DNA from: Shigella phage Sf12 | Reading direction: 5' to 3' (one strand) | DNA length: 47,647 bases | Sequence record: MF158039 | In this document: in pieces, positions 24,158 through 44,820 of the stretch | Position numbering within the stretch: the stretch's first letter is position 1 | How the letters are laid out: every line of letters starts with the position of its first letter | Notes under the pieces: model-generated | What the model was told of the DNA's origin: nothing | The model's input: only the letters and a program-made list of their open reading frames with translations | Databases searched by the model: none | Made by a program: the position numbers and the translations under genes

Positions 24158-24169
24158 TCTACACTAAAT

Positions 24170-24190
24170 AAAAAACCCGCACTAGGCGGG
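24170..24190 (-). terminator. Hairpin plus T-run between I and J (possible attenuator)
   Basis: cccgcctagtgcggg then tttttt on minus strand. Confidence 0.45.
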
Positions 24191-24198
24191 TTGTGATT

Positions 24199-25971: not shown

Positions 25972-25992
25972 TTTTAATCTCCAGTTTAATAG

Positions 25993-26040
25993 ATTATAGG
26001 ATAGCGCATTTCTGCGCTACCCAATTAACAAAAAGTGCTT
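25993..26040 (-). promoter_or_regulatory. Variant junction cassette upstream of the HNH gene: palindrome-like (26026..26040), hairpin, consensus -10 TATAAT
   Basis: ttaacaaaaagtgctt; tagcgcatttctgcgcta hairpin; TATAAT complement of 25993..25998. Confidence 0.4.
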
Positions 26041-26806
26041 AAGTCTGTTGGTTGGCTTTAGCTTGCAGGCTTGCGGCTGCACAACCGCCAAAGTCTAATT
26101 GATTGTTAGCTCCAAACCTTAACTTACAGGCGGTCACGGTTCCAGCACAGAAGTCTTGTGATGGGTCAGTCACAGGCGCGTTGTCCTTATCGAAATATCG
26201 AGTACCCATGTAGTTACATCCATTGCCTGAGCGGTAAAGCCCTCGCTGAGCCCAATAACAAACTGACTGAACAAGGCGCGCCGGAATGTAGATACCATCC
26301 ATATCCATCGGGCTGGTTAGTTCAAATGAGGCCGTATTGTAATCAACCTGCTTAGGTCGCTCAATGAAGTAAACCAGCTTGCGGTAATCGCCATCAGCAA
26401 TGGTGCCATCTTCGTTAATATTCTCCCGAAGGGTGATCCAGATAGTAACCTTGGCCTGAACAAGGCCATTGTAGGTGCGGATAAGCGCAGAAATGTTCTG
26501 GTCAACATTAGAGACAACTAGCGTTACTTTGTTTGCCTTGCCATCAGAAGTCATATTAATACCCTGAATACCGAATGGCCTTGCGCCGTACTCTTCACCA
26601 CGGAAAGTAATTGTCTTCGCTGAAATAGGTTGCCCCGTAGACTGAGCAATCATAATTTCTTCTGGTGTGTAGCTGATGTTCTCTCCATGGAAGCGATACA
26701 CCCTCCCGCCAAACTTAGTGCCATCAACCTCGATTAGCGTAACAATCTCGCCAGGGAACAGGCTTTGTAATTGATTCTCAAACTTAGTGCTTAATGGCGT
26801 AGCCAT
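26039..26806 (-). CDS. Minor tail protein (lambda gpL-like)
   Basis: C-terminal Cys cluster C..C..C..C; position between M and K. Confidence 0.7.
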   Translation of the reverse strand: MATPLSTKFENQLQSLFPGEIVTLIEVDGTKFGGRVYRFHGENISYTPEEIMIAQSTGQPISAKTITFRGEEYGARPFGIQGINMTSDGKANKVTLVVSNVDQNISALIRTYNGLVQAKVTIWITLRENINEDGTIADGDYRKLVYFIERPKQVDYNTASFELTSPMDMDGIYIPARLVQSVCYWAQRGLYRSGNGCNYMGTRYFDKDNAPVTDPSQDFCAGTVTACKLRFGANNQLDFGGCAAASLQAKANQQT

Positions 26807-26820
26807 AATATTTCTCCAAT

Positions 26821-26842
26821 AAAAAAGACCCCGTAGGGTCTT
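26821..26842 (-). terminator. Rho-independent terminator after the moron gene
   Basis: gaccctacggggtc then tttttt on minus strand. Confidence 0.6.
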
Positions 26843-26860
26843 AGTTTATCTCAATTTACA

Positions 26861-27055
26861 TCAATCTTCACTAGTAATAACCTTTGATGCATTTTTTGAG
26901 TAGTGAGAAATCTCATCAAAAGACAATTCAACCCACTCATCCAAGCCAATCTCATAGTAAAGAGGTTTATCTCCAGAGTTATCAATTGTTACAGAGAATG
27001 GCTTTCCATTGTGGAAGTGAACCAGTACGAATTGTGATTTAGGGAAGTTTTTCAT
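26861..27055 (-). CDS. Moron: hypothetical 64-aa protein inserted between tail genes M and L
   Basis: Own junction-cassette promoter upstream and own terminator downstream. Confidence 0.5.
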   Translation of the reverse strand: MKNFPKSQFVLVHFHNGKPFSVTIDNSGDKPLYYEIGLDEWVELSFDEISHYSKNASKVITSED

Positions 27056-27103
27056 TTCATTATCCTCGTTTGTTTGTTTTGGTCATTTCGTTTCGATGAA
27101 GTG

Positions 27104-27150
27104 ATAATACACCACTTCACCGATTCGTCTTTAGCAATTCGTGCTATTTA
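27104..27150 (-). promoter_or_regulatory. Junction cassette copy driving the moron: palindrome (27132..27146), -10-like TATTAT (complement of 27104..27109)
   Basis: tttagcaattcgtgctattta; 22-bp gap; leader catcgaaacgaaatgaccaaaacaaacaaacgaggataATG. Confidence 0.55.
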
Positions 27151-27498
27151 CTGCATCGAGGTAAAAACTTCTACAAACTGCATTGATACAGTCTGCACTT
27201 CCCTAGTGTTTGGTGTGACACTGATGCTGTCTTGAGCCACAACAAACAACCTCAGCTCACCCTGCGGAGTTGTCCAGGCGAACGGGGTGATGATATGCGC
27301 AAAACAGAAGTCTAACACTTCCTTCCAGTTGGTGTTGGTGTAGGTCATGTTGTAAGTGCGCTTATTGGTTCTGTAACCTCCAGTACCAATTTGGGTGTAG
27401 CCATTACCGAATGAGACGCTTCTTACATTGCTTGCGTTGGTAAATGAGCCGCCGCCATTTTGAACCTGTGTACAAAAAGTAAAAGTATCTAATGCCAT
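27148..27498 (-). CDS. Minor tail protein (lambda gpM-like)
   Basis: Size, position between tape measure and L, N-terminal similarity as recalled. Confidence 0.6.
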   Translation of the reverse strand: MALDTFTFCTQVQNGGGSFTNASNVRSVSFGNGYTQIGTGGYRTNKRTYNMTYTNTNWKEVLDFCFAHIITPFAWTTPQGELRLFVVAQDSISVTPNTREVQTVSMQFVEVFTSMQ

Positions 27499-27529
27499 TT
27501 AAAATCCTTAGGGGCCGAAGCCCCATTTA

Positions 27530-30271: not shown

Positions 30272-30305
30272 GTAACCTCCATAAAAAAACCTCCACAAAG
30301 GGAGG

Positions 30306-30560
30306 TTATTTTTGCCTTACTTGCATCATCTCAAGTGCTTTGCACTCCAGTATTCGCAAGTCATTTAAAGTCATCTCTTTGTCCTTGACATTATACACAT
30401 CAAAGAGGAAAGGGAGTACTGAATAATCTATTCCGGTAGCGCCGTTCATACCTACACGCCATTGAGTTGAAGCAGCCTGATACACAGTCCATGCCAGCAT
30501 CATGTCATCATCGAAGTGTAGTTCTTCAGGCTCTTCATCTTCGTAATCGGAACGCCTCAT
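30306..30560 (-). CDS. Tail assembly chaperone T-like segment (probable -1 frameshift extension of G)
   Basis: Frame is open upstream into the end of G; frame offset consistent with -1 shift. Confidence 0.45.
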   Translation of the reverse strand: MRRSDYEDEEPEELHFDDDMMLAWTVYQAASTQWRVGMNGATGIDYSVLPFLFDVYNVKDKEMTLNDLRILECKALEMMQVRQK

Positions 30561-30622
30561 GCCAATTGCTTCAAGCTCGGATTCCGTTGGCTCTCTTTGG
30601 TATTGTAGATATACTGCGCGCT

Positions 30623-30937
30623 TTAGACCTTTGCGCGTTGGCCCGCCAGAGCTTGCATGTAAGCATTAGTCAGTGCAAGAACGGATGCGGGGAACAGGGA
30701 GACCAGTTCTTCGATGTTCTCGTCGTTAAATTCCTCTTCAAGGTTCCAGCCACTGCAAATCTCTTTCACAAAATCAAAGTCCTTAAGGCCTTCTGTCTGG
30801 AATACTTCCTGAATTTCTTTTGCCTTACGGTGTTTTGCGTTGAAGATAACCTCAGCTTCCTCGCCGTTGATCATCTGGAACTTAACTGGAAGCTTGAAAT
30901 CAGGGAGTGCGCCTAATTTTAATTTGAACTTAGCCAT
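30623..30937 (-). CDS. Tail assembly chaperone (lambda gpG-like)
   Basis: 104-aa acidic protein between major tail protein and tape measure. Confidence 0.55.
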   Translation of the reverse strand: MAKFKLKLGALPDFKLPVKFQMINGEEAEVIFNAKHRKAKEIQEVFQTEGLKDFDFVKEICSGWNLEEEFNDENIEELVSLFPASVLALTNAYMQALAGQRAKV

Positions 30938-30980
30938 TTAAATAATCCTCTCGTGTTTGTTTGAGTTGAAATTATAACAT

Positions 30981-31005
30981 AAAAAAAGCCCCTGTGAAGG
31001 GGCTT
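30981..31005 (-). terminator. Rho-independent terminator after the major tail protein gene
   Basis: aagccccttcacaggggctt then ttttttt on minus strand. Confidence 0.6.
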
Positions 31006-31010
31006 GATTA

Positions 31011-31661
31011 TTATGCTGGCAGGAAGCTGTAGCGTCCACGTACCGTAATTGCTACGGATACAGTTTCGATTTCGTTAACGCTTACGTTTGGAGTTTCGTT
31101 AAAAGCAACGGTACCAGTCCACAGGCGAACTTCGCTAGCCTTTGGTACATATGCACGAATCGCAGTAACCTTGCCACTCTCATCCAGTTCGCGAAGGATT
31201 GGGTAAATGGGGTTGTTGTATTCATGAGCAAAAGTATAGGTCGCGTTTACTGCAGACTTGTAAGTAGGAATCTGCTGTTCACGGTCATCGCTCAGGCACT
31301 GATAGGTAACGAACTGCTGCTCACCACCGTCAGTAGAAACATCCTGAATACAAGGCATTTCAAACCAGGTAAGAACCTTGGCGATAGTTGCCGTGCCGCC
31401 AGCTGGGAACTTCAGGGTTGAAGTGGTATCAATACCTTCAACGGTGATAGTTGTAGCGGTGGTAGACACCACGCGAAGCTGCTTGTCTGCCAGGTTAGAC
31501 CAGGTTGAAGATTCAACAACAACGAAATCGCCGGTAGCGAAGGTTGAAGCGTCAGCAACAGTCATGACCGGCTGAACTGCGTTGGTAATTGCTGTAACAT
31601 CTACTGCGTCAGAGCGTGAGCCCTCAATAAAAATTTGACTGCCATTTGCGAGGTGAGCCAT
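31011..31661 (-). CDS. Major tail protein
   Basis: Position upstream of G/T and tape measure; strong terminator downstream. Confidence 0.55.
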   Translation of the reverse strand: MAHLANGSQIFIEGSRSDAVDVTAITNAVQPVMTVADASTFATGDFVVVESSTWSNLADKQLRVVSTTATTITVEGIDTTSTLKFPAGGTATIAKVLTWFEMPCIQDVSTDGGEQQFVTYQCLSDDREQQIPTYKSAVNATYTFAHEYNNPIYPILRELDESGKVTAIRAYVPKASEVRLWTGTVAFNETPNVSVNEIETVSVAITVRGRYSFLPA

Positions 31662-31675
31662 GTAAATCTCCTTAA

Positions 31676-32062
31676 TTAGTCTAATCTTACGTAAAATCGG
31701 ACAGGAATGAACCAGCCGGACTGTGATTTCACTGGAGGAAATACAGAACCGCCTTCATAAATGTATCCGCTGTCAAGCATTGTACCATCGGCGAAAGCTT
31801 CTGACAATCGCCCAGCCAATTGGCGAGGCCTATCAGTTCCCTCGCCTGGTGAAAAGAATATAGAGACCTGAACCATGCCTACGTAATACCGGCATGTTCG
31901 CTGCAGCCCCCATGTCACACTATCAACCTCCGTGTAATCAAACTTCAGCCATGAACTTCCGTTTTTTGGCGGAGTGAATCCGCAGTTCTCATAAGATACT
32001 GGCAGCCCTCCTGCAATATCAACTGCAGCATCGCTAACCAGCTTTCTTGCTGCTACCATCAT
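31676..32062 (-). CDS. Tail terminator / completion protein (ORF 31676..32191, start refined)
   Basis: Position only. Confidence 0.4.
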   Translation of the reverse strand: MMVAARKLVSDAAVDIAGGLPVSYENCGFTPPKNGSSWLKFDYTEVDSVTWGLQRTCRYYVGMVQVSIFFSPGEGTDRPRQLAGRLSEAFADGTMLDSGYIYEGGSVFPPVKSQSGWFIPVRFYVRLD

Positions 32063-32063
32063 C

Positions 32064-32492
32064 TCATAGTGCACGTTTAGCCTCCTGTACCGCCTCAGCG
32101 AAATATCGACCAAGCCTCTTTTGGACAACACCAAGAACGCCAGAAGGTGCCTGATTGGATGAACCAAACTCAAGACCTTGCGCATAATCAAGGCGGTTGG
32201 TAATGTAAATTACGTTTGTATTGTTATCCCTGGCTAGTGCGTAGATTTGCCTGCGAAGAGAGTTTCGAGTCTCATTACCGTCAGGGTCGTAATTATTCAG
32301 TGACTGCGATGCTGGTGAGTTACCAGTAGCCTGCCAGTTACCTCTAAATCGACCAGTATCAACGGGAGATAGCTTAACGATGTCGTTGGCAGCCTTGGTT
32401 AATGTGCCTTCCACAATCAATTCTACACCCTCCGTGACTCCATCAATCCATGCGTTAATTGAGTTCCTAAAACTAACAACGTCATTAGCCAT
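32064..32492 (-). CDS. Head-tail joining protein (putative)
   Basis: Position only. Confidence 0.4.
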   Translation of the reverse strand: MANDVVSFRNSINAWIDGVTEGVELIVEGTLTKAANDIVKLSPVDTGRFRGNWQATGNSPASQSLNNYDPDGNETRNSLRRQIYALARDNNTNVIYITNRLDYAQGLEFGSSNQAPSGVLGVVQKRLGRYFAEAVQEAKRAL

Positions 32493-32862
32493 AAGTTGCA
32501 GCCCTCCTTAGTACTGGCCTGTAGGCGATTACCGTGCCAGTTGGCTTCACTGGTCGCGGGTCAATGACTGTGTAGGCCTCCTGGTCAATGTAGATTCGGT
32601 CGCCTTCCGATACAACTGAATCAGCAGTAAAAATTCCGCGACGGTCACCGAATTTAATGATGTCACCGTCAATGTCTCGCGCTTTGAATTCACGGATAAC
32701 ACCTCGCACTGTGTATGAAGTTCCAGGGGTGCGCACCTCGTAGCCATTCACGATAGAGATGGTTGGTTGAGTTGTAGCCTCGAAAACGCCATCACCATCT
32801 GACAGGAGGTTAATGCCAGCTTTAATTTGCTGTTGCAAAAGTGCGTGATTCATCGGCAGCAC
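32485..32862 (-). CDS. Head-tail connector / head completion protein (putative)
   Basis: Position only. Confidence 0.4.
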   Translation of the reverse strand: MLPMNHALLQQQIKAGINLLSDGDGVFEATTQPTISIVNGYEVRTPGTSYTVRGVIREFKARDIDGDIIKFGDRRGIFTADSVVSEGDRIYIDQEAYTVIDPRPVKPTGTVIAYRPVLRRAATYG

Positions 32863-33251
32863 CTCGACCCACCAGAAGTAATCAAACCCCAGCGGCCAAC
32901 TTTGCGACGCATTAAATCAATGTAAAGCTTACCCCATGAGGACGCCTCAAGGTTAGACGAGCTTGCAGCAGCTGTGCTTGTATCATAGCTAATAGTGTAC
33001 TCGCCTGAAAGGGAGTAGGACTTAACCCGGTCAGAGGATGTTTGGCTTGAATCATTCTCAGTCTTCAGTGCGATATCCTGGCTAAGCAAGTGAAGCGTGT
33101 AGAATGCCAATGCTGGAACCTGCTTGTCGCCAAACTTATCTAAGCAGATAAACAACTTGGCCACCTCAATCCATGCGTTAATAACATCATCAGGTTGATT
33201 GTTAAGGGGAGGGTAAAGCTGCCTCATATACGCAATTACTTCTTCATTCAT
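32850..33251 (-). CDS. Head-tail adaptor (putative)
   Basis: Position only. Confidence 0.4.
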   Translation of the reverse strand: MNEEVIAYMRQLYPPLNNQPDDVINAWIEVAKLFICLDKFGDKQVPALAFYTLHLLSQDIALKTENDSSQTSSDRVKSYSLSGEYTISYDTSTAAASSSNLEASSWGKLYIDLMRRKVGRWGLITSGGSRCCR

Positions 33252-33295
33252 GTGATATCTCCATACAATAAAGGACGCCGAAGCGCCCTTTTGGT

Positions 33296-33541
33296 TTATT
33301 TGTAGTCGCCGCCGTTCTCAGCTTCGTCAATGTTCTTTGCTTGTTTCTTGGTCTTAGCTTTCGCTTTAACTTCCTGCTCGATTTCTTTCGTTGCCTTATG
33401 GTCATCCTCAATCTCAAGCTTACCTTCAGCCACCAGAATCTTTAAGCCAACTGATAACTCTTCAACCTCAATGCAGTCACCTGGCAGATAATCTTTAGCT
33501 CCAAGACGGATAACACAAGCACCTTTATGTAACAGTTTCAT
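33296..33541 (-). CDS. Hypothetical head-module protein, about 81 aa (ORF 33296..33598, start refined)
   Basis: Consensus -10 TATAAT and conserved leader caatcgaaacaaaggaggaaagaATG upstream. Confidence 0.45.
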   Translation of the reverse strand: MKLLHKGACVIRLGAKDYLPGDCIEVEELSVGLKILVAEGKLEIEDDHKATKEIEQEVKAKAKTKKQAKNIDEAENGGDYK

Positions 33542-33568
33542 TCTTTCCTCCTTTGTTTCGATTGTTTG

Positions 33569-33633
33569 ATTATATAGCCATATAAACAAAAATACCACCC
33601 CGAAGGGTGGTAGGTGATCAGCAATAATTGCTA
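33569..33633 (-). promoter_or_regulatory. Composite junction: palindrome (33619..33633) right after the capsid-gene stop, terminator hairpin (33596..33611), then -10 TATAAT (complement of 33569..33574)
   Basis: gcgTAA-TAGCAATTATTGCTG; ccacccttcggggtgg plus T-run. Confidence 0.55.
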
Positions 33634-34620
33634 TTACGCGAAGGTGATACCCTTCATGACTGCCATCGTTAAAGGCCTATACACGATCAAACCAGTTGCC
33701 TTGGAGGTTACTGGTACGCGGAAATGTAAATCCTTCGGCTGAGCCGGTAGTGCGTTAGTAGCTTCCGGAATCTCGATGGCCATGTTGTTCGGGTCTTTCT
33801 CATAAGCGATAGCTGCAGAGGTGCCAGTGCCATTGTAATCATTCAGGTACTGAACGAACTCAACAGTTACGCCGCTGTTGTTCTGGCGGAAGAATTCACC
33901 ATAGCTAACAGAGGTGCCAGGAACCAGGTTCTGCATGATACGACGAGCGGTAGTAGGCAGAAGAAGGTGCGTAGCGCGGTGCTGACCATTAGTTGAAGTC
34001 TCGATAATATCCAGAAGGCTTGTAATGTCGCTTACCGCTGTGGTAGGTTGAGCCCATGAGCCACCGCTAACAACGTTGTTGATATTTGGGTAGTCGAACA
34101 CGCTAGGGATGCCGTGAACGGTAGAGCCGGACCATACCAGTTTATCAAGCAGCTTGTCGTGAGCTTCGAAAGCCAAGGACTGCTTGCGAGCAGACAGTGA
34201 CTGACCAGTAGCCTGACCAACTTTAATTTCATCAATAGAAATCAGGAACGCGTTACCGAAACGGAAAACTTTACCCTGACGTTCAGTTGCTAAAGCGTCA
34301 ACCAGTGGCAGGTCATCAGTGTAGTCAGCTACGATCTGAGCAATACCAACGCCATCAAATACCGGATACTCAAAGTACTTAGCATAGCCAGGGATTTCAT
34401 TGCTTACAGGGAACAGGTTTACTACGGAGTTCTGATCGTACTCAGTCTCGTAAGCTTTATTCAGGCTTGCAGTGAGTTGCTTCACAGTCCAGATACCAGC
34501 CGCGTCGGCTTTATCAACACCCATCGCGCGCAGGTGGTTAGTAATCTTTTCTTGCTCGAAAGCGTCAAGTTTGATAGTCATATTAAGATGCATCCTTTTG
34601 TTTATGAGTTTACGTGTCAA
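33634..34620 (-). CDS. Major capsid protein (putative)
   Basis: 328 aa, followed by strong terminator; position in head module; no motif-level proof. Confidence 0.5.
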   Translation of the reverse strand: MTRKLINKRMHLNMTIKLDAFEQEKITNHLRAMGVDKADAAGIWTVKQLTASLNKAYETEYDQNSVVNLFPVSNEIPGYAKYFEYPVFDGVGIAQIVADYTDDLPLVDALATERQGKVFRFGNAFLISIDEIKVGQATGQSLSARKQSLAFEAHDKLLDKLVWSGSTVHGIPSVFDYPNINNVVSGGSWAQPTTAVSDITSLLDIIETSTNGQHRATHLLLPTTARRIMQNLVPGTSVSYGEFFRQNNSGVTVEFVQYLNDYNGTGTSAAIAYEKDPNNMAIEIPEATNALPAQPKDLHFRVPVTSKATGLIVYRPLTMAVMKGITFA

Positions 34621-34680
34621 TTATACACGAGATTTTGATTGGAACAATAGGCGATTCCTTTCGCCTTTAACTTTAATCCA

Positions 34681-36156
34681 CTATGCGAGAGGTTCGCTTA
34701 AGTTTTCCACCTTATAAGCGTAAACGCCAGCCAAGGCATCGGATGAGTTCCTTATGCCAACTATTGTAAGCTTGAAGCATTTAGAGTCAGCTGTAGCTCC
34801 TGGTGATGTGGTTACGTAGTGCTCAGATGTGACTCCAAAAACTCCTGGCTTGAACACGCTATTCCAAAGAGCAGTCCCAGGAGGCATGCTTGTTACTATC
34901 GCTGTGTAGTTTTTCAACTTATCAGCTGCAACTGTAGTGAGTGAGTCAATCTGGTATGCAGTGTGCCTTATTGAAGCGATGTTTGATGTACCGGTATTAC
35001 TAACACCAACCCACAGCCCCTTAGCGGCAACTGTCGCATTCTTCTCTCCGGTAAGAGCGAACCTTATTGTTGTCTCTCCAGGTATATCTATAAAGTCAGT
35101 ATCCGTCTGATTGATCAACCCTGACCTTACGCCTGAAGCTACGTTATAAGAGGCTGGACCAGCCACCCCCTGTAAGCCCTGAGGTCCCGTAGGGCCCTGC
35201 AATCCACGCTCACCCTGCGGGCCTGCCGGGCCTTGTGGTCCAACTGCACCAGCTACACCTTGTAAGCCTTGCGGGCCAGCTGGGCCTTGCTCACCTTGCA
35301 GGCCCCTCTCGCCTTGTGGGCCTTGAATACCTGCCGGACCTGTCGGGCCAGTTGGGCCTGCTGGACCAGCGGAACCCTGTGGGCCTGGAGCACCCTGTGC
35401 GGCCAGTAACTCCCAGGAATCGCTAACATCTGGATTTTCTCCGGTCACGGCGGCGGTAGCAAACCAGCTTGAGTTATTGAATGTAACAACGTCATCTTTA
35501 ACGTAAGCTGTCGCTGCGTCGTACATCCCGCGGAATGTTAAGCCTGCCGGACCAACTGGGCCCGCATCACCTTTATCACCTTTAGGGCCAGCAGGACCTG
35601 CTGCGCCAGTTGCACCGATAGGGCCTTGCGGACCAGCCTCGCCAGTTTCACCTTGAGGACCTTGCGGGCCTACGGGGCCAGCTGGACCAGTTTCGCCTTT
35701 AGCACCTGCCGCGCCTGCCGGGCCGGTAGCACCTGTTGGGCCTTGAGGACCCTGTGGACCAATAGCTCCTGCCGGGCCCGCTGGACCCTGTGGACCAACC
35801 GGACCTTGTGGGCCTGCTTCACCTGAGCCTCCTTCTTCATCACTTACAAAATCACCTTTCGCCAGCGCTGAAAGATAAGCACCATCTTCGAAGTGGGCAT
35901 TGCCAAACCTGCGCCAGCCCTGGGCTAGATATCTGTTAACCCTGTTAACTAATCCCTGAATTGTGGTATCGGATGTCACCATGAAGTCTTCAACGTTGTT
36001 TGCTGTTCCCTTCGCCATCTTCATGCCAAAGAGGGTGCCGCTCAGCATCTGCACGTCGCCATATGGCTGGAATCCTGATGAAATCATCATTTTTACGTTT
36101 CTGGCTAAGATTTCAGGTGAATTCCCTACTGCCATAGCAATTTCTGTGTAAGCCAT
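34681..36156 (-). CDS. Collagen-like triple-helix repeat protein (fiber-like structural protein)
   Basis: Two long Gly-X-Y tracts, e.g. [34 protein letters not shown]. Confidence 0.8.
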
Positions 36157-36210
36157 CTCTATCTCCTGATTGGTTAATAATCATTGACAGTCTAACAGAA
36201 AACCAGCAAT

Positions 36211-36232
36211 AAAAAACCTCCCAAAGGAGGTT
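36211..36232 (-). terminator. Rho-independent terminator
   Basis: aacctcctttgggaggtt then tttttt on minus strand. Confidence 0.6.
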
Positions 36233-36237
36233 TGATA

Positions 36238-37530
36238 TTAAACGCGAGAAACTGAAAGGATTTCCACTTGGGCGCCAGTTTGTAAGTATAGCTGGCCAGC
36301 AACGTCATTCTCATCAATAGCATTTACTACGCCAGAGAAGATTCTGACACCAAAACCTTTAGTCAGCCTTGCCACTACGTTAAATCCACGAGGCTTAACT
36401 GGAACCATTAGTGATTTCTGACCTGTAGCCGCCAGAAAAACCTCGCGAGCCATAGCCATACCCCTGAACTCATGACCCAGAGCGCCAGGGTGAACCCTAT
36501 CAGTTCCGGTGTATATTTCAGAGTTTGCTGCCGTTACATAGTTGCTAATGTTGATTACTGGTATCCCGTTATCAGCACAGAAGCCATCAACCAACTCAAC
36601 AACCCTCTGAGTTGTGGCATTCAATCCAATTGGTGTTGCGCAGCTAATCTGGATGATTGGTACATCACTGTAAGTCTTCCTGGTCTCCTCCAGGCACTCC
36701 GACATAGACCTAAGCAGCCACTCAGCCTTGCCAGGGTCATTTATTGAAACTGAGTCATTATAACCAAGCGCCCACGAGATAACGTCAGGTTTTCTATTTA
36801 ACGCTGCGAGCCTTGTCTTTACCCTGTTAATCGGGAACCTGCCCTCCTCTTTTGAAGTCCAGGCCGATCCACCAATCCCTTCGCAGATACCATCGAATCC
36901 AAGCGCTCGACTAAAAGTATAGAAGTCGTTTACTGCAGGGGATGAGCCATAAGACTGAGTCCTAAATCCCGCACCAGTACCAGCTGTGTAGCTATCACCC
37001 ATCTGGTAAATGAATGGCCTTTTAATAGTAATATCCCTGCTAATCGTGTCTAACGGACCGAATGCGAAAGAGCCAAATGCAGTGTTAACGCCATAAATCT
37101 CAATATGCCTTAACTTTCCGCTAACGACTCCATCATTGGCCTTCACTTGAATCCAGCTAACACCCTCAGTGGTTGGTGTCGTGATAGCATCTAGGGTTAC
37201 CAATTTACCGTCAACGAATATTGAGTAAGATGAAAGAGAGCCAATGGTCTTAATTTCAAAAAGCCTTGAATCAGTCATAAACTCAAGTTTCATCTGAAGG
37301 CCATTCGAAGGCTTCTGACCAGTGTAAGACCCGCCTGAAACGTTATCAAATCCGTAGGTTGTCCACATGAGATTGGTCTCATTAAGTCTATTGATAACTT
37401 GAGGGGTGGTAATTGATGTTGCGGCCCTGATTTCCTTGATTGCGGAAAACTCAGTCGATAGCTGAACTGGCTGCATAGTAGCCAAGCCGTTTTCAATATT
37501 TCTTTTTACCAAATCAATAAAGCTTGCCAT
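36238..37530 (-). CDS. SGNH/GDSL-family esterase with about 170-aa N-terminal non-catalytic domain
   Basis: Block I GDSYTAG, block III GYND, block V DRVH. Confidence 0.7.
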   Translation of the reverse strand: MASFIDLVKRNIENGLATMQPVQLSTEFSAIKEIRAATSITTPQVINRLNETNLMWTTYGFDNVSGGSYTGQKPSNGLQMKLEFMTDSRLFEIKTIGSLSSYSIFVDGKLVTLDAITTPTTEGVSWIQVKANDGVVSGKLRHIEIYGVNTAFGSFAFGPLDTISRDITIKRPFIYQMGDSYTAGTGAGFRTQSYGSSPAVNDFYTFSRALGFDGICEGIGGSAWTSKEEGRFPINRVKTRLAALNRKPDVISWALGYNDSVSINDPGKAEWLLRSMSECLEETRKTYSDVPIIQISCATPIGLNATTQRVVELVDGFCADNGIPVINISNYVTAANSEIYTGTDRVHPGALGHEFRGMAMAREVFLAATGQKSLMVPVKPRGFNVVARLTKGFGVRIFSGVVNAIDENDVAGQLYLQTGAQVEILSVSRV

Positions 37531-37580
37531 TTTCTTTCCTCCAATTTTAAGTGAAACTAATTGTACCAGTTTACAGGCAT

Positions 37581-37603
37581 AAAAAAACCTCCCGAAGGAG
37601 GTT
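37581..37603 (-). terminator. Rho-independent terminator
   Basis: aacctccttcgggaggtt then ttttttt on minus strand. Confidence 0.6.
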
Positions 37604-37612
37604 TGATCTGAA

Positions 37613-38137
37613 TTATTCCATTAACTCATAAGTAACAATGGCTCGTCCTGATGTTTTTTTGTTCACTTCAGCAGCTACACCTGCCACGACGATAATCCTG
37701 TGTGCATATGCTTCTGGATCTATAGTCCAGTTGTAATATCCATTATATGGACCACTAAAAACGTATACCGCATCATCATCAAAGTCATTAGCAAGCTTTG
37801 GCTTAGACAGCGGTGTTAGACCCATAGATTCACACATCTCATAACCAATCATCTCATGATCTACAGTTGGTTGCTTTCCCATACCAAGATCAATAACAAT
37901 CAATTTAATGCTTGAAAATTTAACCCCAGAACTAACAGTCTCAGAGTAAGGTAATGATGTGGCACTTGATTTTTTATACGTCTCCTTTGAGGTTGCGCTT
38001 AAGTTGAATCCCTTGTATGAAGCGACCTCTAGGTATGGGAATGATCCGATAAATGAAACCTCTTTCTCGCTGAAATTATCTGCAATTGCAGCAGATAGTT
38101 CATCTAAAGTAATCAAGTCTAAGTTTAGCTTCTTCAT
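37613..38137 (-). CDS. Hypothetical structural-module protein (ORF 37613..38200, start refined to Met 38137)
   Basis: ORF track; upstream extension would cover a terminator hairpin. Confidence 0.4.
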   Translation of the reverse strand: MKKLNLDLITLDELSAAIADNFSEKEVSFIGSFPYLEVASYKGFNLSATSKETYKKSSATSLPYSETVSSGVKFSSIKLIVIDLGMGKQPTVDHEMIGYEMCESMGLTPLSKPKLANDFDDDAVYVFSGPYNGYYNWTIDPEAYAHRIIVVAGVAAEVNKKTSGRAIVTYELME

Positions 38138-38174
38138 ATAAACCCCTATTAAAAAGGCCCCGAAGGGCCATTTA

Positions 38175-38648
38175 TTATTTCTGAATAACCTGAACTTCAA
38201 CGAGCGCTGGGTCAGTTAATGCATCAGCTCCAGCTGCCTGGAAGCCACCTGCGAATGTCCAGTTAGTAGTGATTGCACCACCGCTTGTTGCGGAGCCATC
38301 AGTACCAATGGTAACCGCGCTGCCAAATGCCGGAGCGGCAGAAAGACCGGTAACCATCCAGATGCGACCGTGAGTCATTACGTTAGCGACCTGGAAGTTA
38401 TCAATATTACCAACAACGCCACCGTAAGAGCCGCGCGGGCTTTCGTAGTGTGACTTCACCAGAACGCCATATACGTTATCAGCAACAGCGGAAACCAGAA
38501 CTTTGTGACCATCAGCATCAACAGAACCGACACCAACAGCATAACCGACACCCTGAACTACTCCGGTAGACATTATACATGCACCATCAATATTGTACAG
38601 AGAGGTATCTGCAACCATACCAGCAGTAGCTTGACGACGAATTGCCAT
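38175..38648 (-). CDS. Gly/Ala/Val-rich structural protein (possible decoration or minor head protein)
   Basis: Composition and position after scaffold-like gene. Confidence 0.4.
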   Translation of the reverse strand: MAIRRQATAGMVADTSLYNIDGACIMSTGVVQGVGYAVGVGSVDADGHKVLVSAVADNVYGVLVKSHYESPRGSYGGVVGNIDNFQVANVMTHGRIWMVTGLSAAPAFGSAVTIGTDGSATSGGAITTNWTFAGGFQAAGADALTDPALVEVQVIQK

Positions 38649-38659
38649 ATTAAGACTCC

Positions 38660-39769
38660 TTATTTTTTCAATTTAGCGAGGCGAGCGCGCGGGTTAAGAG
38701 TCTTAACTTCCGGTGCTGCATCAGATTTTTCCGCGCCAGCAACTGCTACACGGGCTTCAGCCATTTTATCAGAAGATTTGGCGATATCAAAGGCCGCATC
38801 GATGTACGCATCAGATTTCTCAGCAACTTCAATACCAGATACTTCTTTAACGTAAGCAACTTTAATTGCTTTAGCGTCCAGGCCATCACATTTAACGCCA
38901 GCTTCTGCAGCAACGGCGACCAGAGCAGCCAGTTCATCAGCATCAGCTTTAGCTTTCGCTACAGCAGCTTCGATTTCAGCAGGAATGCCATCAACTTTAG
39001 CTTTCAGTGCGTCACGCTCAGCTTCAAGGGTGTCAGCTTTGGCCTTGGCCTGTTCTGCATCAGCTTTAACGGCCTCGATATGCTTAGCAACTTCCGGGGC
39101 GATTTCGAACTCCTGCTCGCCATCCAGTTTAATCTTAATCATCAATTTATCCTCTTTATTTGATTGAACGGTATCAGTATACGGGTTTTCCTGTTCCGCG
39201 TCCAGATTCAGTTTAGCCACTTGCGCACGGCCTTTATATACCAGAGCAATGTGGTTCACAACGATGTTTGTTTGCAGAGCATCAAAGCGTACCCAATCAG
39301 CAGGAATCTCATCCTGACTTGAGTATTCTCCATCAAGCTTATACTCACCAGTTTCATTGCTGCCCCAGCCAGGAGACTCAATATCAACAGTGTTGTAGCC
39401 AACCGAAAGCTCACCAGCAACGCCAGACCTAGCCTTCTCGATTGCTTGCTTGTCGTAAACGGTAAGAGGAACGACAACTGTAGAATCCTGGCGCATCGCC
39501 GTACCGGATACTGCGCCAACTACGACATCCTTGGCGTTATCTGAGTTAACTACAACGTGACCTAAGGTAAGCGGCTTGCCCTGATAACTTTGCAGAGAGT
39601 CAGCTTTAAAGACCTCTGATGCTGGTCGGAACTCTCGGCGCTCCGAACCATCTGGCAGATGGTAAGTTTGCACGCCTACACGCGCAACCACTGGAGTGTC
39701 TACGAGAAACCCGTTTTCATCGAAATGGGCCTTTACTTTGGCGCTATCATAACGCATCTTACTCTTCAT
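38660..39769 (-). CDS. Head morphogenesis protein: N-terminal globular domain plus Ala/Lys/Glu-rich coiled-coil scaffold-like C-terminus
   Basis: C-terminal low-complexity AKADAEQAKAKADTLEAERDALKAK; position after portal. Confidence 0.5.
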   Translation of the reverse strand: MKSKMRYDSAKVKAHFDENGFLVDTPVVARVGVQTYHLPDGSERREFRPASEVFKADSLQSYQGKPLTLGHVVVNSDNAKDVVVGAVSGTAMRQDSTVVVPLTVYDKQAIEKARSGVAGELSVGYNTVDIESPGWGSNETGEYKLDGEYSSQDEIPADWVRFDALQTNIVVNHIALVYKGRAQVAKLNLDAEQENPYTDTVQSNKEDKLMIKIKLDGEQEFEIAPEVAKHIEAVKADAEQAKAKADTLEAERDALKAKVDGIPAEIEAAVAKAKADADELAALVAVAAEAGVKCDGLDAKAIKVAYVKEVSGIEVAEKSDAYIDAAFDIAKSSDKMAEARVAVAGAEKSDAAPEVKTLNPRARLAKLKK

Positions 39770-41036
39770 TAATCACCACCTCCTCTACTAATTCTTCCTG
39801 AGCGGGTTGCTCTGGCAAGTTAACATCGCCATCCTGAAGCTTAACTTCCGTCGCAATGGTACGTAGTGTATCACGAGCTTCTTCGGTATTCATCACGCCA
39901 GCAGCAATCAATGCGGCGACTGAGTTAACGTTCTTCTCAAGAATCTCAGACTTATCTTTATCGCTAACCTGAGATAGGGGGTTAAATTCCACTGACCACT
40001 CTTGCTTAGTTACGATGAACGGTAACAGAAACTCAAGAAGAGGCAGCAATTCAGCCTTTCGCTTGCGGTCAACGTACCCGTAAAACGTCTCTAAAGCAGT
40101 ATTCTGGCTTGCTGATACGCCGCCAACGTTCTTGCCTTTAAGGATAATCTCGTGAATACCGCTCAGAGCAACGATTCGGTCAAACTTCTGACTCAAAAAC
40201 GTATCAATACCGCCAATATCCGAGTTAAGTACGTTATATTCCTCGCTCTCTGCGTCAATGCCGATTGCCTGGCCAACTCCACTGTTATTATCAACCTGTG
40301 CCAGGCGCAATCGAGCCGCGCCAAATCCATCTGAATCATCGCACAGGTCAGCTAAACCCTTGGCTTTCCAAACCGCCTGCTGTTTACGACGCAGTAACTG
40401 AGTAGCCAGTCGCTCACAGTTCTGATAGTCGTCAATAGCGTCGATTAAGTCACCAGTTAGTACGCTTGCGCCCCAGCCATCGTTGTTGCGACGTAAATTG
40501 TTAGGCACTCGCTCGCCATCAATGATATGGCAGCGTGTATAATGCACATCGTAGAACGTTGCCGCACCATTTGGCGTAATGCGGTAAGTTAATGGCTTAC
40601 CAAATCTAGCGTTACGTGGATTCTCCTCGCGAGTCTGGACCTTAACTTGCTGCCGGTCGTATACGCGAACAGTTTCGAGCTCCGCGCCTTCACGAATCGG
40701 GCTGGTTAGTGCTCTGCCATCCTTAACGATTGCCACTACAGCGGCGCCACCGTATAACCTCGCCCACGCCAGAGCGTCGATTACACTATCTGAAAGGTCT
40801 AAATCATCCCAGCGCGACCAGAAAGCGCCCTCATCATCAATGCCTTCAATGTTGAAGCCTGCGCCAAGCGCTACCTCTGGCACGATATCAATGATTCGGC
40901 GAACCAACGCGCTGCTGACGTAAAGCTGCTCAAGCTGCGCTGGCGCTGTTAAACCAAGGCTGCCAAACTTTCCGTAAATCTCGCTACCATCACTCCCGTT
41001 AAGAAAGATGTTTGCGTAGCTGTCTGCTTTTACCAT
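39759..41036 (-). CDS. Portal protein (putative)
   Basis: 425 aa directly downstream of the large terminase; position-based. Confidence 0.5.
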   Translation of the reverse strand: MVKADSYANIFLNGSDGSEIYGKFGSLGLTAPAQLEQLYVSSALVRRIIDIVPEVALGAGFNIEGIDDEGAFWSRWDDLDLSDSVIDALAWARLYGGAAVVAIVKDGRALTSPIREGAELETVRVYDRQQVKVQTREENPRNARFGKPLTYRITPNGAATFYDVHYTRCHIIDGERVPNNLRRNNDGWGASVLTGDLIDAIDDYQNCERLATQLLRRKQQAVWKAKGLADLCDDSDGFGAARLRLAQVDNNSGVGQAIGIDAESEEYNVLNSDIGGIDTFLSQKFDRIVALSGIHEIILKGKNVGGVSASQNTALETFYGYVDRKRKAELLPLLEFLLPFIVTKQEWSVEFNPLSQVSDKDKSEILEKNVNSVAALIAAGVMNTEEARDTLRTIATEVKLQDGDVNLPEQPAQEELVEEVVINEE

Positions 41037-41049
41037 GTAATTTCTCCAA

Positions 41050-41072
41050 TAAAAAAGCCCCTGAGTAAGGGG
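41050..41072 (-). terminator. Hairpin plus T-run between large terminase and portal
   Basis: gcccc-ttactcag-gggc then ttttttatt on minus strand. Confidence 0.5.
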
Positions 41073-41085
41073 CAGTTTATCATGA

Positions 41086-42654
41086 TTACTTGACTCCAGC
41101 TAGTCGCATTAAGCGGGCTCTTGGGTCGTCACTCAAGTTCAATTCACAGTTGATTGCCATCGTTGTTGTATCCACAATGTCATCATGAGGGTGTGAATCG
41201 TCCGCAGTGAACGCTGAGAACTCAGTTAACAGCGATGTAAGCCACGGTGCAGAGTCTGGCAGAACTACGTTACCAGCCTTAATCTGTGGCAATGCGCTCA
41301 TCACTCTGGTTAGTTTATCCGTATCTGGAACAAATGGTTCGATAGGTGTTCTCATGGTTCGACCTGCTGACTGGATAAGGCCGATACCAGATGCCTTTTT
41401 CTCGATAATAACCTTGCGTAAGATACCATCCGTTTTACTGGTTGCCCTATGCTTGCTCTCAAAATCCAGCAGAGTTTGCTCAAGCTCTGGAGCCTCCCAT
41501 TTCCCCCTCACCATATCCAGAAGGTAGAGCTTGTTATCCTTACGCCCCCAGAGCTGGAATACTGAGTAGTCGCTATAACTCTTCGTAGTCATGGCAGTAT
41601 CAGCCGTAATGAAGCGGTAGTCATACTTGACTGGCGGCCTGTTGTTCTCATCAAGCCTTACGAACCAATCTACGTTAATCAGGTTTCCACCCAGAGCTAC
41701 TGGCTCCTGCTGGTACTGGCTTAGGAATGTATACGGGTCTGAGTCCCACATCGCCATCAGGTCGTGCACAGATTCCTTTTGTGGAAAGTAGCTATAGTAT
41801 TTCACGCCGTCACGCTCAACTGATTCGGATGACAGGACATCCTTCTCGAACTGCTCACGAATCCAGTCAGGAAGCTCATTCGCATAGTCTTCAGTAACCA
41901 GCGCTGGTATCTTTACCACATCAAAGTCGATACCCATACCGCCAGAAGTCATGAACCACGTTGAATCCTGCGTATGTAGCCTTTGCTGGATTGATATAAT
42001 TGGCGTTGATTTACCCTTGACGCTACTTGCCCTACGCGAGCGGATGGTGTTTTTTAGCAACATGTGAACAGACTCGCGCTTCACCTTACTAAACATATCA
42101 TCAGCTTTATCGATATCGTCCAGCATCAGGCATCCGCTATAGGTGTCCGTGATATACCCACCACGACTGCCCGTAATCTGAGAGCCAATTGCCTTGGATA
42201 TGGATTCAAACTTAACCTTCCCAGAATCATCTAGCACCTGAATCTCATCATCCTTACAGGTTCCAAACTTGCACGGGAAAAGACTTTGAAACTCAACTGA
42301 CTTGATAAGGTCACGCACTCGCTTTGAGTTACGCTTCACAAGGCTATCAGAGAACGAGAGGTTAAGGTTCCTTACTTTCTTCAGCTTAAGCATCGAATAA
42401 ACCGGAAAGTGGATCGATGTAATCTCGGTTTTTCCGGCCCCCGGCGAAATATTTATAATCGTATCCTTCCTCTCGCCAGAAACTATCTCATCAATGATTC
42501 TGCATAGGTATTTATGGTGCCAGTTAGGAATGTATCGCTCTGATTGAGATAGCTGGAACCATACACGAAGGAATGCCTCGAAACTGTGAGTGGATAGTGC
42601 CTTAACTGCCAGCTTTTCAGCTGGCGTCATCTCTTCCCAAACTAATGTCTTCAT
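41086..42654 (-). CDS. Terminase large subunit
   Basis: Walker A-like SPGAGKT near N-terminus; acidic nuclease-like C-terminal half; overlaps TerS by 4 bp. Confidence 0.8.
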   Translation of the reverse strand: MKTLVWEEMTPAEKLAVKALSTHSFEAFLRVWFQLSQSERYIPNWHHKYLCRIIDEIVSGERKDTIINISPGAGKTEITSIHFPVYSMLKLKKVRNLNLSFSDSLVKRNSKRVRDLIKSVEFQSLFPCKFGTCKDDEIQVLDDSGKVKFESISKAIGSQITGSRGGYITDTYSGCLMLDDIDKADDMFSKVKRESVHMLLKNTIRSRRASSVKGKSTPIISIQQRLHTQDSTWFMTSGGMGIDFDVVKIPALVTEDYANELPDWIREQFEKDVLSSESVERDGVKYYSYFPQKESVHDLMAMWDSDPYTFLSQYQQEPVALGGNLINVDWFVRLDENNRPPVKYDYRFITADTAMTTKSYSDYSVFQLWGRKDNKLYLLDMVRGKWEAPELEQTLLDFESKHRATSKTDGILRKVIIEKKASGIGLIQSAGRTMRTPIEPFVPDTDKLTRVMSALPQIKAGNVVLPDSAPWLTSLLTEFSAFTADDSHPHDDIVDTTTMAINCELNLSDDPRARLMRLAGVK

Positions 42655-43166
42655 AGTTTATCCATTACCGAGGCCAGAGCTGCCTTCATTGCTTCCTCAT
42701 CGTTTACTACTGCATTAGAAGCGTTGTTGATGTTAACCTCTTGCGGCTTGTCGATGCCAAGGTCTTTGCCAATCAGTCCAGGGTTGACGATATTGTTAAC
42801 GCCAAGCTGATACTTCTGCTCAAAGATGACTGAATCCACGAACTCCATAACCTCATCGAACCCAGGTGATGAACGCCATTTGGCGATTGCATTGGGGCCT
42901 ACGCCGCAGAACAACTGGAATCCAGTTATCGTAAATACTCGCGGCTTGTGCACAAGGTTCTCAGTGACTACGCCCCGAAAGCTAGCGGTTTCAATTGCTT
43001 TAATTACTTGCTCTTCAGCCCAGCTGAAATACCTGACGGCCATATCGAAGACCTGTTCTGGCGTATATCTATGGTTAATCTTCAGGTTGGCAATGTCGCC
43101 ATACTTCTTATTGTAAAGTTCTTTGAAGTTTCCAATCTTCTGGTGAATCTTTTTCTCTTCTGACAT
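42651..43166 (-). CDS. Terminase small subunit (putative)
   Basis: 171 aa immediately upstream of and overlapping the large subunit. Confidence 0.5.
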   Translation of the reverse strand: MSEEKKIHQKIGNFKELYNKKYGDIANLKINHRYTPEQVFDMAVRYFSWAEEQVIKAIETASFRGVVTENLVHKPRVFTITGFQLFCGVGPNAIAKWRSSPGFDEVMEFVDSVIFEQKYQLGVNNIVNPGLIGKDLGIDKPQEVNINNASNAVVNDEEAMKAALASVMDKL

Positions 43167-43213
43167 GTGATATTCCTCCTGTTTTAAAAGTCATTGTATC
43201 ATGAGTACGCACG

Positions 43214-43238
43214 AAAAAAAGCCCTCACGAGGAGGGCC
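43214..43238 (-). terminator. Rho-independent terminator
   Basis: ggccctcctcgtgagggc then ttttttt on minus strand. Confidence 0.6.
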
Positions 43239-43265: not shown

Positions 43266-43451
43266 TCAAACGAGGGATATTTTATCAACGCTGACTTTGT
43301 GAACTGTCAGGTCAATCTTAAATGCTGCCTTTGCGGCTGCAACTGCTTCTTCAGGGCTACTGGCAAGGAACCTACCTTCGTATGATTGCTGGCAAGATTT
43401 GCATTGTCGACCCATTAGGCGGGAAGTTAAACGTACTTCGTAGTTATTCAC
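43266..43451 (-). CDS. Hypothetical Cys-containing small protein, 61 aa
   Basis: ORF track. Confidence 0.4.
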   Translation of the reverse strand: MNNYEVRLTSRLMGRQCKSCQQSYEGRFLASSPEEAVAAAKAAFKIDLTVHKVSVDKISLV

Positions 43452-43467
43452 CAGGATGCTCCATGAT

Positions 43468-43543
43468 TGGTGTTCCGCGCTGGACTCGAACCAGCAACTG
43501 AGACTTAGGAGGTCTCTGCGTTATCCTGTTACGCCAGCAGAAC
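43468..43543 (-). tRNA. tRNA-Arg (anticodon CCU, decodes AGG)
   Basis: Hand-folded cloverleaf: acceptor GTTCTGC/GCGGAAC, D stem GCGT/ACGC with GG in loop, anticodon stem GAGAC/GTCTC loop CTCCTAA, T arm GCTGG-TTCGAGT-CCAGC, encoded CCA. Confidence 0.85.
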
Positions 43544-43795
43544 TAGAATAGGTGCCGGTTACGGAATCCGGCGAGCTTTCACAATGCTCCGCGTTTGCGA
43601 CTTATACTTTGCTTTTGGCGATGCGCTATTGCCTCGTATCTTTACCCAGCCCGGCTATCGGCTTGCATCTCCGCGATGCGCGTTACGGTCATTGCCGCCT
43701 ACGTGGTTAATACTAACCACATTTAACATTTGAGTCAAGCCATGACGACGAAATAAATCCATGTCAGTATGCCCGCCAGGAACCAGATTGATAAC

Positions 43796-44035
43796 TCAGT
43801 CATAAAGTGACTCTCCAGTTTCGGTTTTACCACATCTTCCCGCCAGGTAACCTGCAACCCAAACGAAACGCATCTTCTCGATGATTGCGCTGATCGGGCT
43901 ATGGAACTCACAGATAACTGCCTTCATGATGTCATTATCCTGCTTCTGCTTTGCTGTAAGTTTATCAACCGCCTCGTTTAGCTTCTTGGCCTGGGCGCGT
44001 ACTGCGTTGAATTGTGATTGGGTAAGTCCGAACAT
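43796..44035 (-). CDS. Hypothetical protein, 79 aa
   Basis: ORF track. Confidence 0.4.
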   Translation of the reverse strand: MFGLTQSQFNAVRAQAKKLNEAVDKLTAKQKQDNDIMKAVICEFHSPISAIIEKMRFVWVAGYLAGRCGKTETGESLYD

Positions 44036-44303: not shown

Positions 44304-44350
44304 ATCATATCAACTACCCATTCTGGCGTATTAGCAATTAGTGCTATTTG
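44304..44350 (-). promoter_or_regulatory. Junction cassette copy: palindrome (44332..44346), -10-like TATGAT (complement of 44304..44309); no long ORF downstream
   Basis: attagcaattagtgctatttg; leader catcaagacgaaacgaggagaagaaATG precedes only a 22-codon ORF. Confidence 0.5.
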
Positions 44351-44820
44351 CCGTGATTATCATGAAATACGTATTTTAAGTTCGCTTCCTGCCTTGCCTT
44401 AATTGCCTCATTCATGTCGGAATAAGTTCCCAGGTGAATATCCTTTCCGGAGACTTTAATCTTTGCGGCCCACTTACCTGAAGCTTTGTGCCAGCCTACT
44501 CCAATGAAACCACTTAAGCTAGATGGTCTTATTGATTGGTTCCTCTGATTTCCTGCGTTTGTAACAAGCCTTAGGTTTTCAATCCTGTTATCTTTCCTAT
44601 TATGGTTTATGTGATCAATCATCATACCTTCGGGCTTTTCCCTACCATGCATGAACCAAACTATATTGTGCACAAGTGCGGTTCCGTCTATGAAATGTCA
44701 CTGCAGATAACCTTTAGAATCAGGACTTCCAGTAACTCGTCCATTTGACAATCTGGTTATCGTTCCATCTTTATTATAGCTAAAGTGGCATTTTATATAC
44801 TCTTTATTTCTCACTACCAT
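44344..44820 (-). pseudogene. HNH homing endonuclease interrupted by an in-frame TGA (complement of 44698..44700)
   Basis: Hand translation MVVRNKEY...SKGYLQ*HFIDGTALVHNIVWFMHG...IDHINHNRKDNRIENLRLV aligns across the stop with intact paralogs. Confidence 0.6.

Follow-up and report, generated by a model that had tools for sequence, protein, structure and literature searches.

A covarying RNA family upstream of the terminase genes of T1-like phages and a probable micro-protein gene beside it in Shigella phage Sf12

Shigella phage Sf12 (sequence record MF158039; 47,647 nucleotides, the whole of which is referred to here as the window) has a gap of about 250 bp between two of its genes, at positions 43544-43795. 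We found that most of this gap is occupied by an unannotated, structured RNA of ~160 nt, a member of a strongly covarying family that is core to T1-like phages, and that a probable micro-protein gene lies beside it; the identity of the finding is well supported. The window is a complete coliphage genome of the Rogunavirinae (T1-like phages, Drexlerviridae), with phiEB49, Sd1 and Rogue1 as nearest relatives (88-92% identity). All genes around the gap are encoded on the minus strand, as are all Sf12 features described below. Read 5' to 3' on that strand, a 79-aa open reading frame (ORF; 43796-44035) is followed by the gap, tRNA-Arg(CCU), a 61-aa ORF, a terminator, and the small and large terminase genes. 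An initial annotation had seen neither an ORF of at least 60 aa nor a tRNA-like element in the gap, and had offered a small RNA, a degraded tRNA or a micro-peptide gene as alternatives. Both observations stand, as the longest ORFs touching the gap measure 58, 52, 49, 43 and 35 aa, and ARAGORN and Rfam find no tRNA-like element in it even at E≤10. Our results bear out this interpretation in part: the micro-peptide and structured-RNA alternatives hold together, while the degraded tRNA finds no support; the family-wide spread and the covarying helices had not been anticipated.

The RNA is predicted to span 43544-43704, from the start expected of its promoter to the base before tRNA-Arg, where RNase P is expected to cut. 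In an alignment with three relatives, these ~160 nt between promoter and tRNA form the best-conserved stretch, and Rogue1 shows compensatory changes in two hairpins. The 5' domain (43658-43705, the match to covariance model R1) comprises a single-stranded CGUAGGC, hairpin Pa (GCGG-CAAUGA-CCGU, 43685-43698; weak in the clade of Sf12, 4-5 bp elsewhere), the linker AACGC, hairpin Pb (GCAUC-GCGGA-GAUGC, 43665-43679, with a conserved RCGR in its loop) and AAGCC. A variable middle segment follows (43604-43657), lineage-specific in length and sequence, with 22-37-nt indels even between close relatives. Hairpin H1 (GAGC-AUUGUGAAA-GCUC, 43573-43589), identified by alignment and covariation, directly abuts hairpin H2 (GCCGG-AUUCCGUAA-CCGGC, 43554-43572), which belongs to the match of covariance model R2 and carries a near-universal GUAA at the end of its loop. 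The plan of the family as a whole reads 5' CGUAGAC(A)nA(A/C)GAG, Pa, AACGn, Pb (loop RCGR..), variable middle, then abutting H1 and H2 with (C)GUAA at the end of the H2 loop.

The four helices Pa, Pb, H1 and H2 covary strongly. As a control, pairing was recomputed after shifting the stem partners (slid controls). Across 52 distinct sequences of the 5' domain, 90.7% of cells are paired as against 19-52% in slid controls, and in a set of 20 distinct sequences the figures are 92.9% and 18-47%; in each set, two-sided changes occur in nine of ten pairs. H1 and H2 are paired in 100% of cells in 19 distinct sequences (slid, 22-41%), with two-sided changes in six of nine pairs, and an alignment made by MAFFT only, scored for H1, H2 and a candidate pseudoknot, gives 99.2% (slid, 20-42%) with two-sided changes in six of 11. 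By helix, all five pairs of Pa change on both sides across the family, four of the five pairs of Pb are compensatory with 98-99% of cells paired, and the stem of H1 exists as GAGC/GCUC, GAGG/CCUC, AGGC/GCCU, GGGC/GCCC and GUUGC/GCAAC. Loops and indels vary freely while stems remain paired, and G-U pairs are seen when the sense strand is read; on the other strand, the same positions would be C-A mismatches. Compensatory changes preserve the helices between lineages that share no more than 45-65% identity in their terminase proteins.

Two longer-range contacts may add to this architecture. A 2-bp pseudoknot could tentatively join C43591/G43590, just 5' of H1, to G43562/C43563 in the H2 loop; it is supported by a single compensatory change, CG:CG to CC:GG, seen in the Rogue1 clade. 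Family-wide, the RCG of the Pb loop is complementary to a CGU in the loop of H2 or of the terminal hairpin (in Sf12, 43670-43674 with 43561-43565, GCGGA:UCCGU, 5 bp), so that a contact between the two loops is possible; this pairing is conserved without covariation, and Webervirus lacks both partners. In Tempevirinae-type relatives, the last hairpin has a 9-bp stem followed by 4-8 U and carries GUAAG on its 3' side, with seven of 12 predicted pairs compensatory; in tRNA-less phages, the last hairpin lies 8-10 nt 5' of the Shine-Dalgarno sequence. Two further candidates were rejected: a 5'-terminal hairpin CUCGU..ACGAG, whose two sides do not covary, and an upstream ORF or leader peptide, for which ESCO41 offers GUG..UAA (six codons) and T1 and vojen have no equivalent. 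Separately, in Shigella phage vB_SsoS_008 (our loci L033, ~700-830, and L114) H2 has a different 3' strand (GCCGC AGACCCGUAA AUAAC) and Pb is weaker, the sign of a copy in decay or else of an error in the sequence.

All Drexlerviridae lineages sampled, among them T1, carry the RNA in one fixed position on the upstream side of the small terminase gene. R1, the model of the 5' domain, was built from ten sequences with the Sf12 clade left out. It matches the sense strand once in each of 22 of 25 sources, with nothing else at E≤1, and recovers the held-out ECH1, Phagiculus, Rao1 and Webervirus; the three sources without a match are Sauletekiovirus-type loci (L005, L016 and L018). In the Sf12 genome, its sole match is 43658-43705 (17.2 bits, E=2.7e-3). 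R2, the model of H1-H2, matches Sf12 at 43548-43603 with 72 bits and the held-out T1 with E=3.5e-12; inspection of T1 likewise showed a homologue of the RNA. We also obtained 78 Drexlerviridae loci from IMG/VR via terminase alignment. R1 matched 71 of them, in a single copy each, always on the terminase strand and 500-1200 nt upstream; R2 matched 31. By blastn, four sequence types occur in 46, 74, 125 and 352 GenBank phage records, one copy per record (~600 in total), and further Drexlerviridae genera share the 3' part of the RNA, tRNA-less Pantoea phage AAS23 being one example.

Most of the records matched by blastn have no annotation under the element. Where GenBank does call a coding sequence (CDS) over the RNA, as for Rogue1_0013 (L003, 1860-1982), ESCO41_00044 on the opposite strand (L004, 1098-1286) and Phagiculus CDS0021 (L006, 1060-1233), the hypothetical protein is probably spurious. 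A vojen-type element with 93-96% identity was also present in twenty records labelled 'Campylobacter phage' (e.g., MG065657, C4); these are probably mislabelled coliphage-like Drexlerviridae or contaminants.

The RNA begins directly after a sigma70 promoter that had been noted in the initial annotation as TTGACT ... TAGTAT (43710-43738). It consists of a -35 TTGACT (43733-43738), a 17-nt spacer and a -10 TAGTAT (43710-43715), and matches the consensus at nine of 12 positions. Such a match is in itself at chance level, with two promoter-like sites in 1.3 kb where 2.0 are expected from shuffles. We nevertheless judged the promoter real because its position is conserved: 51 distinct relatives share TTGACN, a 16-18-nt spacer and TAnnnT in this location. 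Of these 51 upstream regions, 46 have TTGACN as their -35 and 39 a spacer of exactly 17 nt, and in 50 the RNA model begins 3-6 nt past the -10; both hexamers are invariant in four relatives. The predicted transcription start, ~43702-43704, thus coincides with the 5' edge of the conserved RNA. In most lineages (L004, L025, L029, L031, L032, L082 and others), the spacer also holds a CTGAnnGG motif that is absent from the Sf12 clade; sigma70 promoters do not usually have such a motif, and it might bind a factor.

Upstream of the promoter, the 22-codon hydrophobic ORF proposed earlier is present at 43735-43803 (MTELSIWFLAGILTWIYFVVMA), with one predicted transmembrane helix. Its overlap with the upstream gene had been described as a 4-nt ATGA and is in fact 8 nt long (ATGACTGA, whose second TGA, 43796-43798, is the stop of the 79-aa ORF). 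Its ATG therefore lies inside the 3' end of that ORF, 8 nt past the end of the gap as first drawn (43795), and its TGA stop overlaps the -35 hexamer. Substitutions among relatives are of the coding type: of 12 variable sites in five distinct alleles, eight are third codon positions, three are first positions (two with synonymous Leu changes) and one is a second position, and the replacements are limited to F/L, G/A and I/M. GGAG-like motifs lie 8-9 nt 5' of the start in four of the five alleles, and the micro-ORF and its overlapping start are retained also in relatives that have another gene upstream. The product has no PHROG match and, in Pfam, only a weak match to DUF6341 below the cutoff; the gene was seen only in the clade of Sf12. 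Altogether, the substitution pattern makes it probable, from these few alleles, that the micro-ORF is a translated small membrane-protein gene; a micro-peptide gene was among the alternatives of the initial annotation.

Downstream, the RNA is followed by zero to two tRNAs and then by one to three small ORFs. In Sf12, tRNA-Arg(CCU), called by ARAGORN and Rfam at 43468-43543, starts 10 nt past the H2 stem. Among 60 loci, 12 have tRNAs, of five kinds (Arg-CCU, Arg-UCU, Ser-GCU, Trp and Val), which start 3-6 nt past the end of the R2 match (e.g., L040 at 1624, L047 at 1476 and L053 at 1346); the exception is the second tRNA of phiEB49 (Val), which directly follows its tRNA-Arg. The linker AAUUCNAGG, which stands 5' of the ribosome-binding site in tRNA-less phages, is still recognisable before the tRNA in Sf12. 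This suggests that the ancestral state was a 5' untranslated leader into which the tRNA was inserted later, and that the site between the RNA and the old ribosome-binding-site linker acts as a tRNA insertion hot spot.

The 61-aa ORF (43266-43451) encodes a phrog_2919 protein (PHROG match, E=1.8e-28) with one CxxC motif. Homologues of ~60 aa with an invariant CxxC were found in 74 of the 78 loci. The protein has no sequence match in Pfam or PDB; its AlphaFold model (mean confidence score pLDDT 74) has a beta-beta-alpha-beta fold, and its weak top Foldseek matches, a hint only, are small beta-beta-alpha-beta proteins that include rRNA-binding LX/eL20, PurS and phi29 p6. An intrinsic terminator (43220-43238), with an equivalent in all 17 lineages inspected, closes the unit, and the extended -10 promoter of the small terminase gene (TGATACAAT, 43193-43201) lies just 3' of it. 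In 16 of the 17 lineages an extended -10 (TGGTATAAT-type, TGnTATAAT-type) is found within ~10 nt of the terminator (L040-L116, positions ~1900-1990). With a terminator and a separate terminase promoter behind it, the RNA thus heads a small insulated unit made up of promoter, RNA, optional tRNA(s), phrog_2919 protein and terminator.

Two observations concern the wider neighbourhood. An HNH homing-endonuclease gene (44344-44673) lies among the small early ORFs just upstream of the gap, where relatives vary in the genes they carry (Rogue1, for instance, has an additional one of 64 aa). Eight strong terminators, each made of a GC-rich hairpin and a U-tract, lie within the co-directional late gene block (minus strand, 30288-43238), and terminator-like sites in this block number 27, compared with 16.8 +/- 4.5 in shuffles.

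The RNA matches no catalogued family. The Infernal/Rfam scan suggested in the initial annotation returned only tRNA-Arg at this locus, and Rfam 15, searched at permissive thresholds with the Sf12 genome and seven relatives, returned only tRNAs; the best non-tRNA scores were 17-30 bits, against gathering thresholds of 41-70, and none was on the sense strand of the element. Our literature searches found no description of such an RNA. A host-derived RNA was rejected at the sequence level, as mimic or as capture, since blastn against 5,426 E. coli genomes gave no match. Searches of the phage genome for complementary targets of the loops or of the 5' end gave none that was convincing. As for an Hfq-type small RNA with its own Rho-independent terminator, Sf12 has no minus-strand terminator between 43704 and 43238, and an own 3' terminator is present only in Tempevirinae-type relatives. 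Resemblances seen only by eye, to RfaH ops, lambda boxA/boxB and a -10-like pause element, and apparent mimicry of CRISPR repeats or of anticodon loops (UUGUGAA, His; UUCGUAA, Thr), are not conserved in the family and were rejected.

What the RNA does can be approached from its position and from what is conserved in it. The overall explanation that we favour, with slightly better than even confidence, is that of a micro-gene, a sigma70 promoter and a ~160-nt structured RNA that heads a short unit, possibly as a regulatory leader. We infer that the RNA is transcribed and that, in Sf12, RNase P cutting at tRNA-Arg frees it. A more specific role, as a cis-acting leader that a protein or RNA polymerase would recognise, is plausible, if short of an even chance. 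The short helices would serve to hold conserved unpaired nucleotides (the 5' CGUAGAC..AAGAG, AACG, the RCGR loop and the GUAA bulge), which could be recognised during transcription by a protein, the co-encoded phrog_2919 product being the obvious candidate, or by RNA polymerase. The level of transcription or translation that continues beyond the terminal hairpin, to the genes for tRNA and small protein, would then be set by this recognition. Invariant unpaired nucleotides on short helices do point to macromolecule recognition or to a tertiary fold; generic stabilisation is unlikely, since an unpaired 5' end of 15 nt would give no protection from RNase E. The conserved genes behind the terminator hairpin of Tempevirinae also call for some read-through mechanism. 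The layout resembles that of a riboswitch or protein-binding leader, with a conserved structured domain in a 5' untranslated region that is constant at its 5' end and lineage-variable at its 3' end (a terminator in Tempevirinae, a hairpin adjacent to the ribosome-binding site elsewhere). The last hairpin is terminator-like or lies close to the ribosome-binding site; inspection gave no convincing alternative pairing of the kind that a riboswitch platform would need.

Several findings weigh against this leader. In Sf12 and 11 other loci, one or two tRNAs stand between it and the ORF, and RNase P would cut the leader off at the tRNA, which argues against translational control in cis. The two domains can also be found apart, the 5' domain by itself in Webervirus and H1-H2 with a different 5' part in Sauletekiovirus, as would be expected of two independent binding modules more than of a single switch. 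In Sf12 itself, the RNA has no U-tract terminator, its fold energy is unremarkable (z = -0.27 against shuffles), and its 5' domain is a weak R1 match (17 bits) without the ACAnAAGAG stretch. Its transcription is deduced from the promoter, and for the candidate protein partner Foldseek gave no match at E≤1e-3 (best E=0.12).

Some of these points would suit a stable RNA acting in trans, released by RNase P in Sf12, by its own terminator in Tempevirinae or by RNase E, which would titrate a host or phage protein via repeated loop motifs or base-pair with a target via its single-stranded 5' end. We consider this somewhat unlikely. The conserved unpaired 5' end of ~15 nt begins at +1, as in many seed-first small RNAs, the two domains look like separable modules, and clean 3' ends would be supplied by the tRNA insertion directly after H2 (through RNase P, in Sf12) and by the terminator-like hairpin with U-tract in Tempevirinae. 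In 25 family members the motif YCGUAR was counted 49 times, against 11.4 predicted by shuffles (counts that are not independent, the sequences being related), and most copies are found on the 3' side of loops. However, the RNA has no defined 3' end in T1, Webervirus, Sauletekiovirus and others, where it runs straight into the next ORF, its putative seed is truncated in the Sf12 clade, and the searches of the phage and E. coli genomes described above gave neither target nor relative. A processive antiterminator like the put RNAs of phage HK022, in which the nascent 5' domain binds its own RNA polymerase, would explain read-through of the terminal hairpin, of the terminator before the terminase genes and of the late-operon terminators; we hold it to be improbable. 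Its position is that of HK022 putL, directly after a sigma70 promoter with structure within a few nt of +1 (PMC9378689), and it is present in a single copy per genome, ahead of the structural genes. Like it, put has two stem-loops; no tether to the transcript is needed, so that a tRNA insertion could be tolerated. There is also much to read through, namely the terminator-like hairpin that precedes conserved genes in Tempevirinae and the eight strong minus-strand terminators downstream (30.3-43.2 kb). Against this, the helices are of 4-5 bp where put has two long stems, and R1, run with filters off on HK022 24000-36000, gave a best score of 7.1 bits (E=0.32), the presence of put in that unannotated interval being assumed, so that we rejected homology to put. 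Moreover, the terminase genes of 16 of 17 lineages have their own extended -10 promoter after the terminator, which suggests that the terminator is meant to stop the unit.

Two further readings have very little probability in our view. One is that there is no function at the RNA level, the region being a promoter with a spacer or tRNA leader conserved by recent common descent. The fold energy of Sf12, no better than shuffles, would fit, as would the 90-95% identity that close relatives show anyway; but the two-sided compensatory changes between lineages as distant as their terminases indicate largely refute it, as do stems that stay paired while loops and indels vary, and the MAFFT-only alignment (A6), by giving the same result, counters the objection of a model-fitting artefact. 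The other, held at the same very low level, is a decayed tRNA or a DNA-level element such as a replication origin, a priming site or a packaging site read as single-stranded DNA. The H1 loop of T1 (AUAGUGGUUAA) resembles a D-loop, the succession of a 4-bp and a 5-bp stem is reminiscent of D and anticodon arms, tRNAs insert beside the element, and the terminase genes adjoin it. Still, the degraded tRNA of the initial annotation found no support: no tRNA model matches the element (E≤10 in the window, E≤1 in relatives), ARAGORN makes no extra call over it in 60 loci, it has neither T arm nor acceptor stem, and the family also occurs in tRNA-less phages. An origin was rejected for want of a GC-skew switch at 43.6 kb, and a DNA-level role sits poorly with a promoter whose +1 falls exactly at the 5' edge of the element and with the G-U pairs on its sense strand. 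The small RNA named among the first alternatives is, by contrast, supported by the covariance models and the covariation, which make the rest of the gap a conserved structured RNA downstream of the noted promoter.

A bolder reading, which we regard as unlikely, separates the two domains: the 5' domain (~57 nt from +1) would be a new class of autonomous regulatory RNA core to T1-like phages, and the pseudoknotted H1-H2 module a separate functional RNA that marks the tRNA insertion hot spot. If true, the 5' domain could be the second protein-independent, polymerase-modifying antiterminator after put, structurally unrelated to it, or else a leader of a new kind, riboswitch or protein-sensing, with a role in timing expression beside the packaging genes.

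Few coliphages and Klebsiella phages are isolated as often as the T1-like phages (Drexlerviridae), which are used in therapy and in screens for defence systems; to our knowledge, the control of their transcription has been little described. In the ~600 sequenced genomes that carry it, T1 among them, the RNA is more conserved than most T1-like phage proteins, and yet it is unannotated or lies under apparently spurious CDS calls in several GenBank records. Its entry in RNA family databases would stop annotation pipelines from calling ORFs over it. It also offers a concrete experimental target in T1 and marks a site where T1-like phages repeatedly acquire tRNA genes.

Among known systems, the HK022 put RNAs (putL and putR) are phage RNAs directly downstream of a sigma70 promoter, with stem-loops that bear conserved unpaired bases, upstream of terminators; put RNA is ~70 nt long, with two long stems arranged in a V shape and a triplex (PMC9378689). 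The RNA described here shares this placement just downstream of a sigma70 promoter and upstream of terminators, as well as the stem-loops with conserved unpaired bases, and differs in its helices of 4-5 bp, its one copy per genome where put has two, its lack of sequence or structure homology, and the separate promoter of the terminase operon. Stable RNAs co-transcribed with phage tRNAs are known from T4 (species 1 and 2, or RNA C and D), and P1/P7 C4 and phi80 M3 are phage RNAs processed by RNase P. Like them, the Sf12 RNA is small and structured and would share its transcript with tRNA genes, and its release by tRNA-processing enzymes is expected. Unlike them, it has no Rfam match (C4 is presumably in Rfam), and most members of its family are tRNA-less, so that the tRNA linkage is secondary. 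With riboswitches, ribosomal-protein leaders and attenuators, it shares a conserved, sensor-like 5' domain, a variable 3' end and a small conserved protein encoded downstream; it departs from riboswitches and protein-binding leaders in that we found no alternative (anti-terminator) pairing and that tRNA genes interrupt the link between leader and ORF in some lineages. Finally, in the lambda PR' leader (6S transcript) a strong constitutive promoter is followed by a short leader and then by a terminator, in front of the late genes; the mechanism works through DNA sites, a Q-binding element and a -10-like pause signal. The unit in T1-like phages resembles it in having these three elements immediately in front of the terminase and late genes, but its first transcribed bases hold no conserved -10-like TANNNT, and what is conserved in it is RNA structure.
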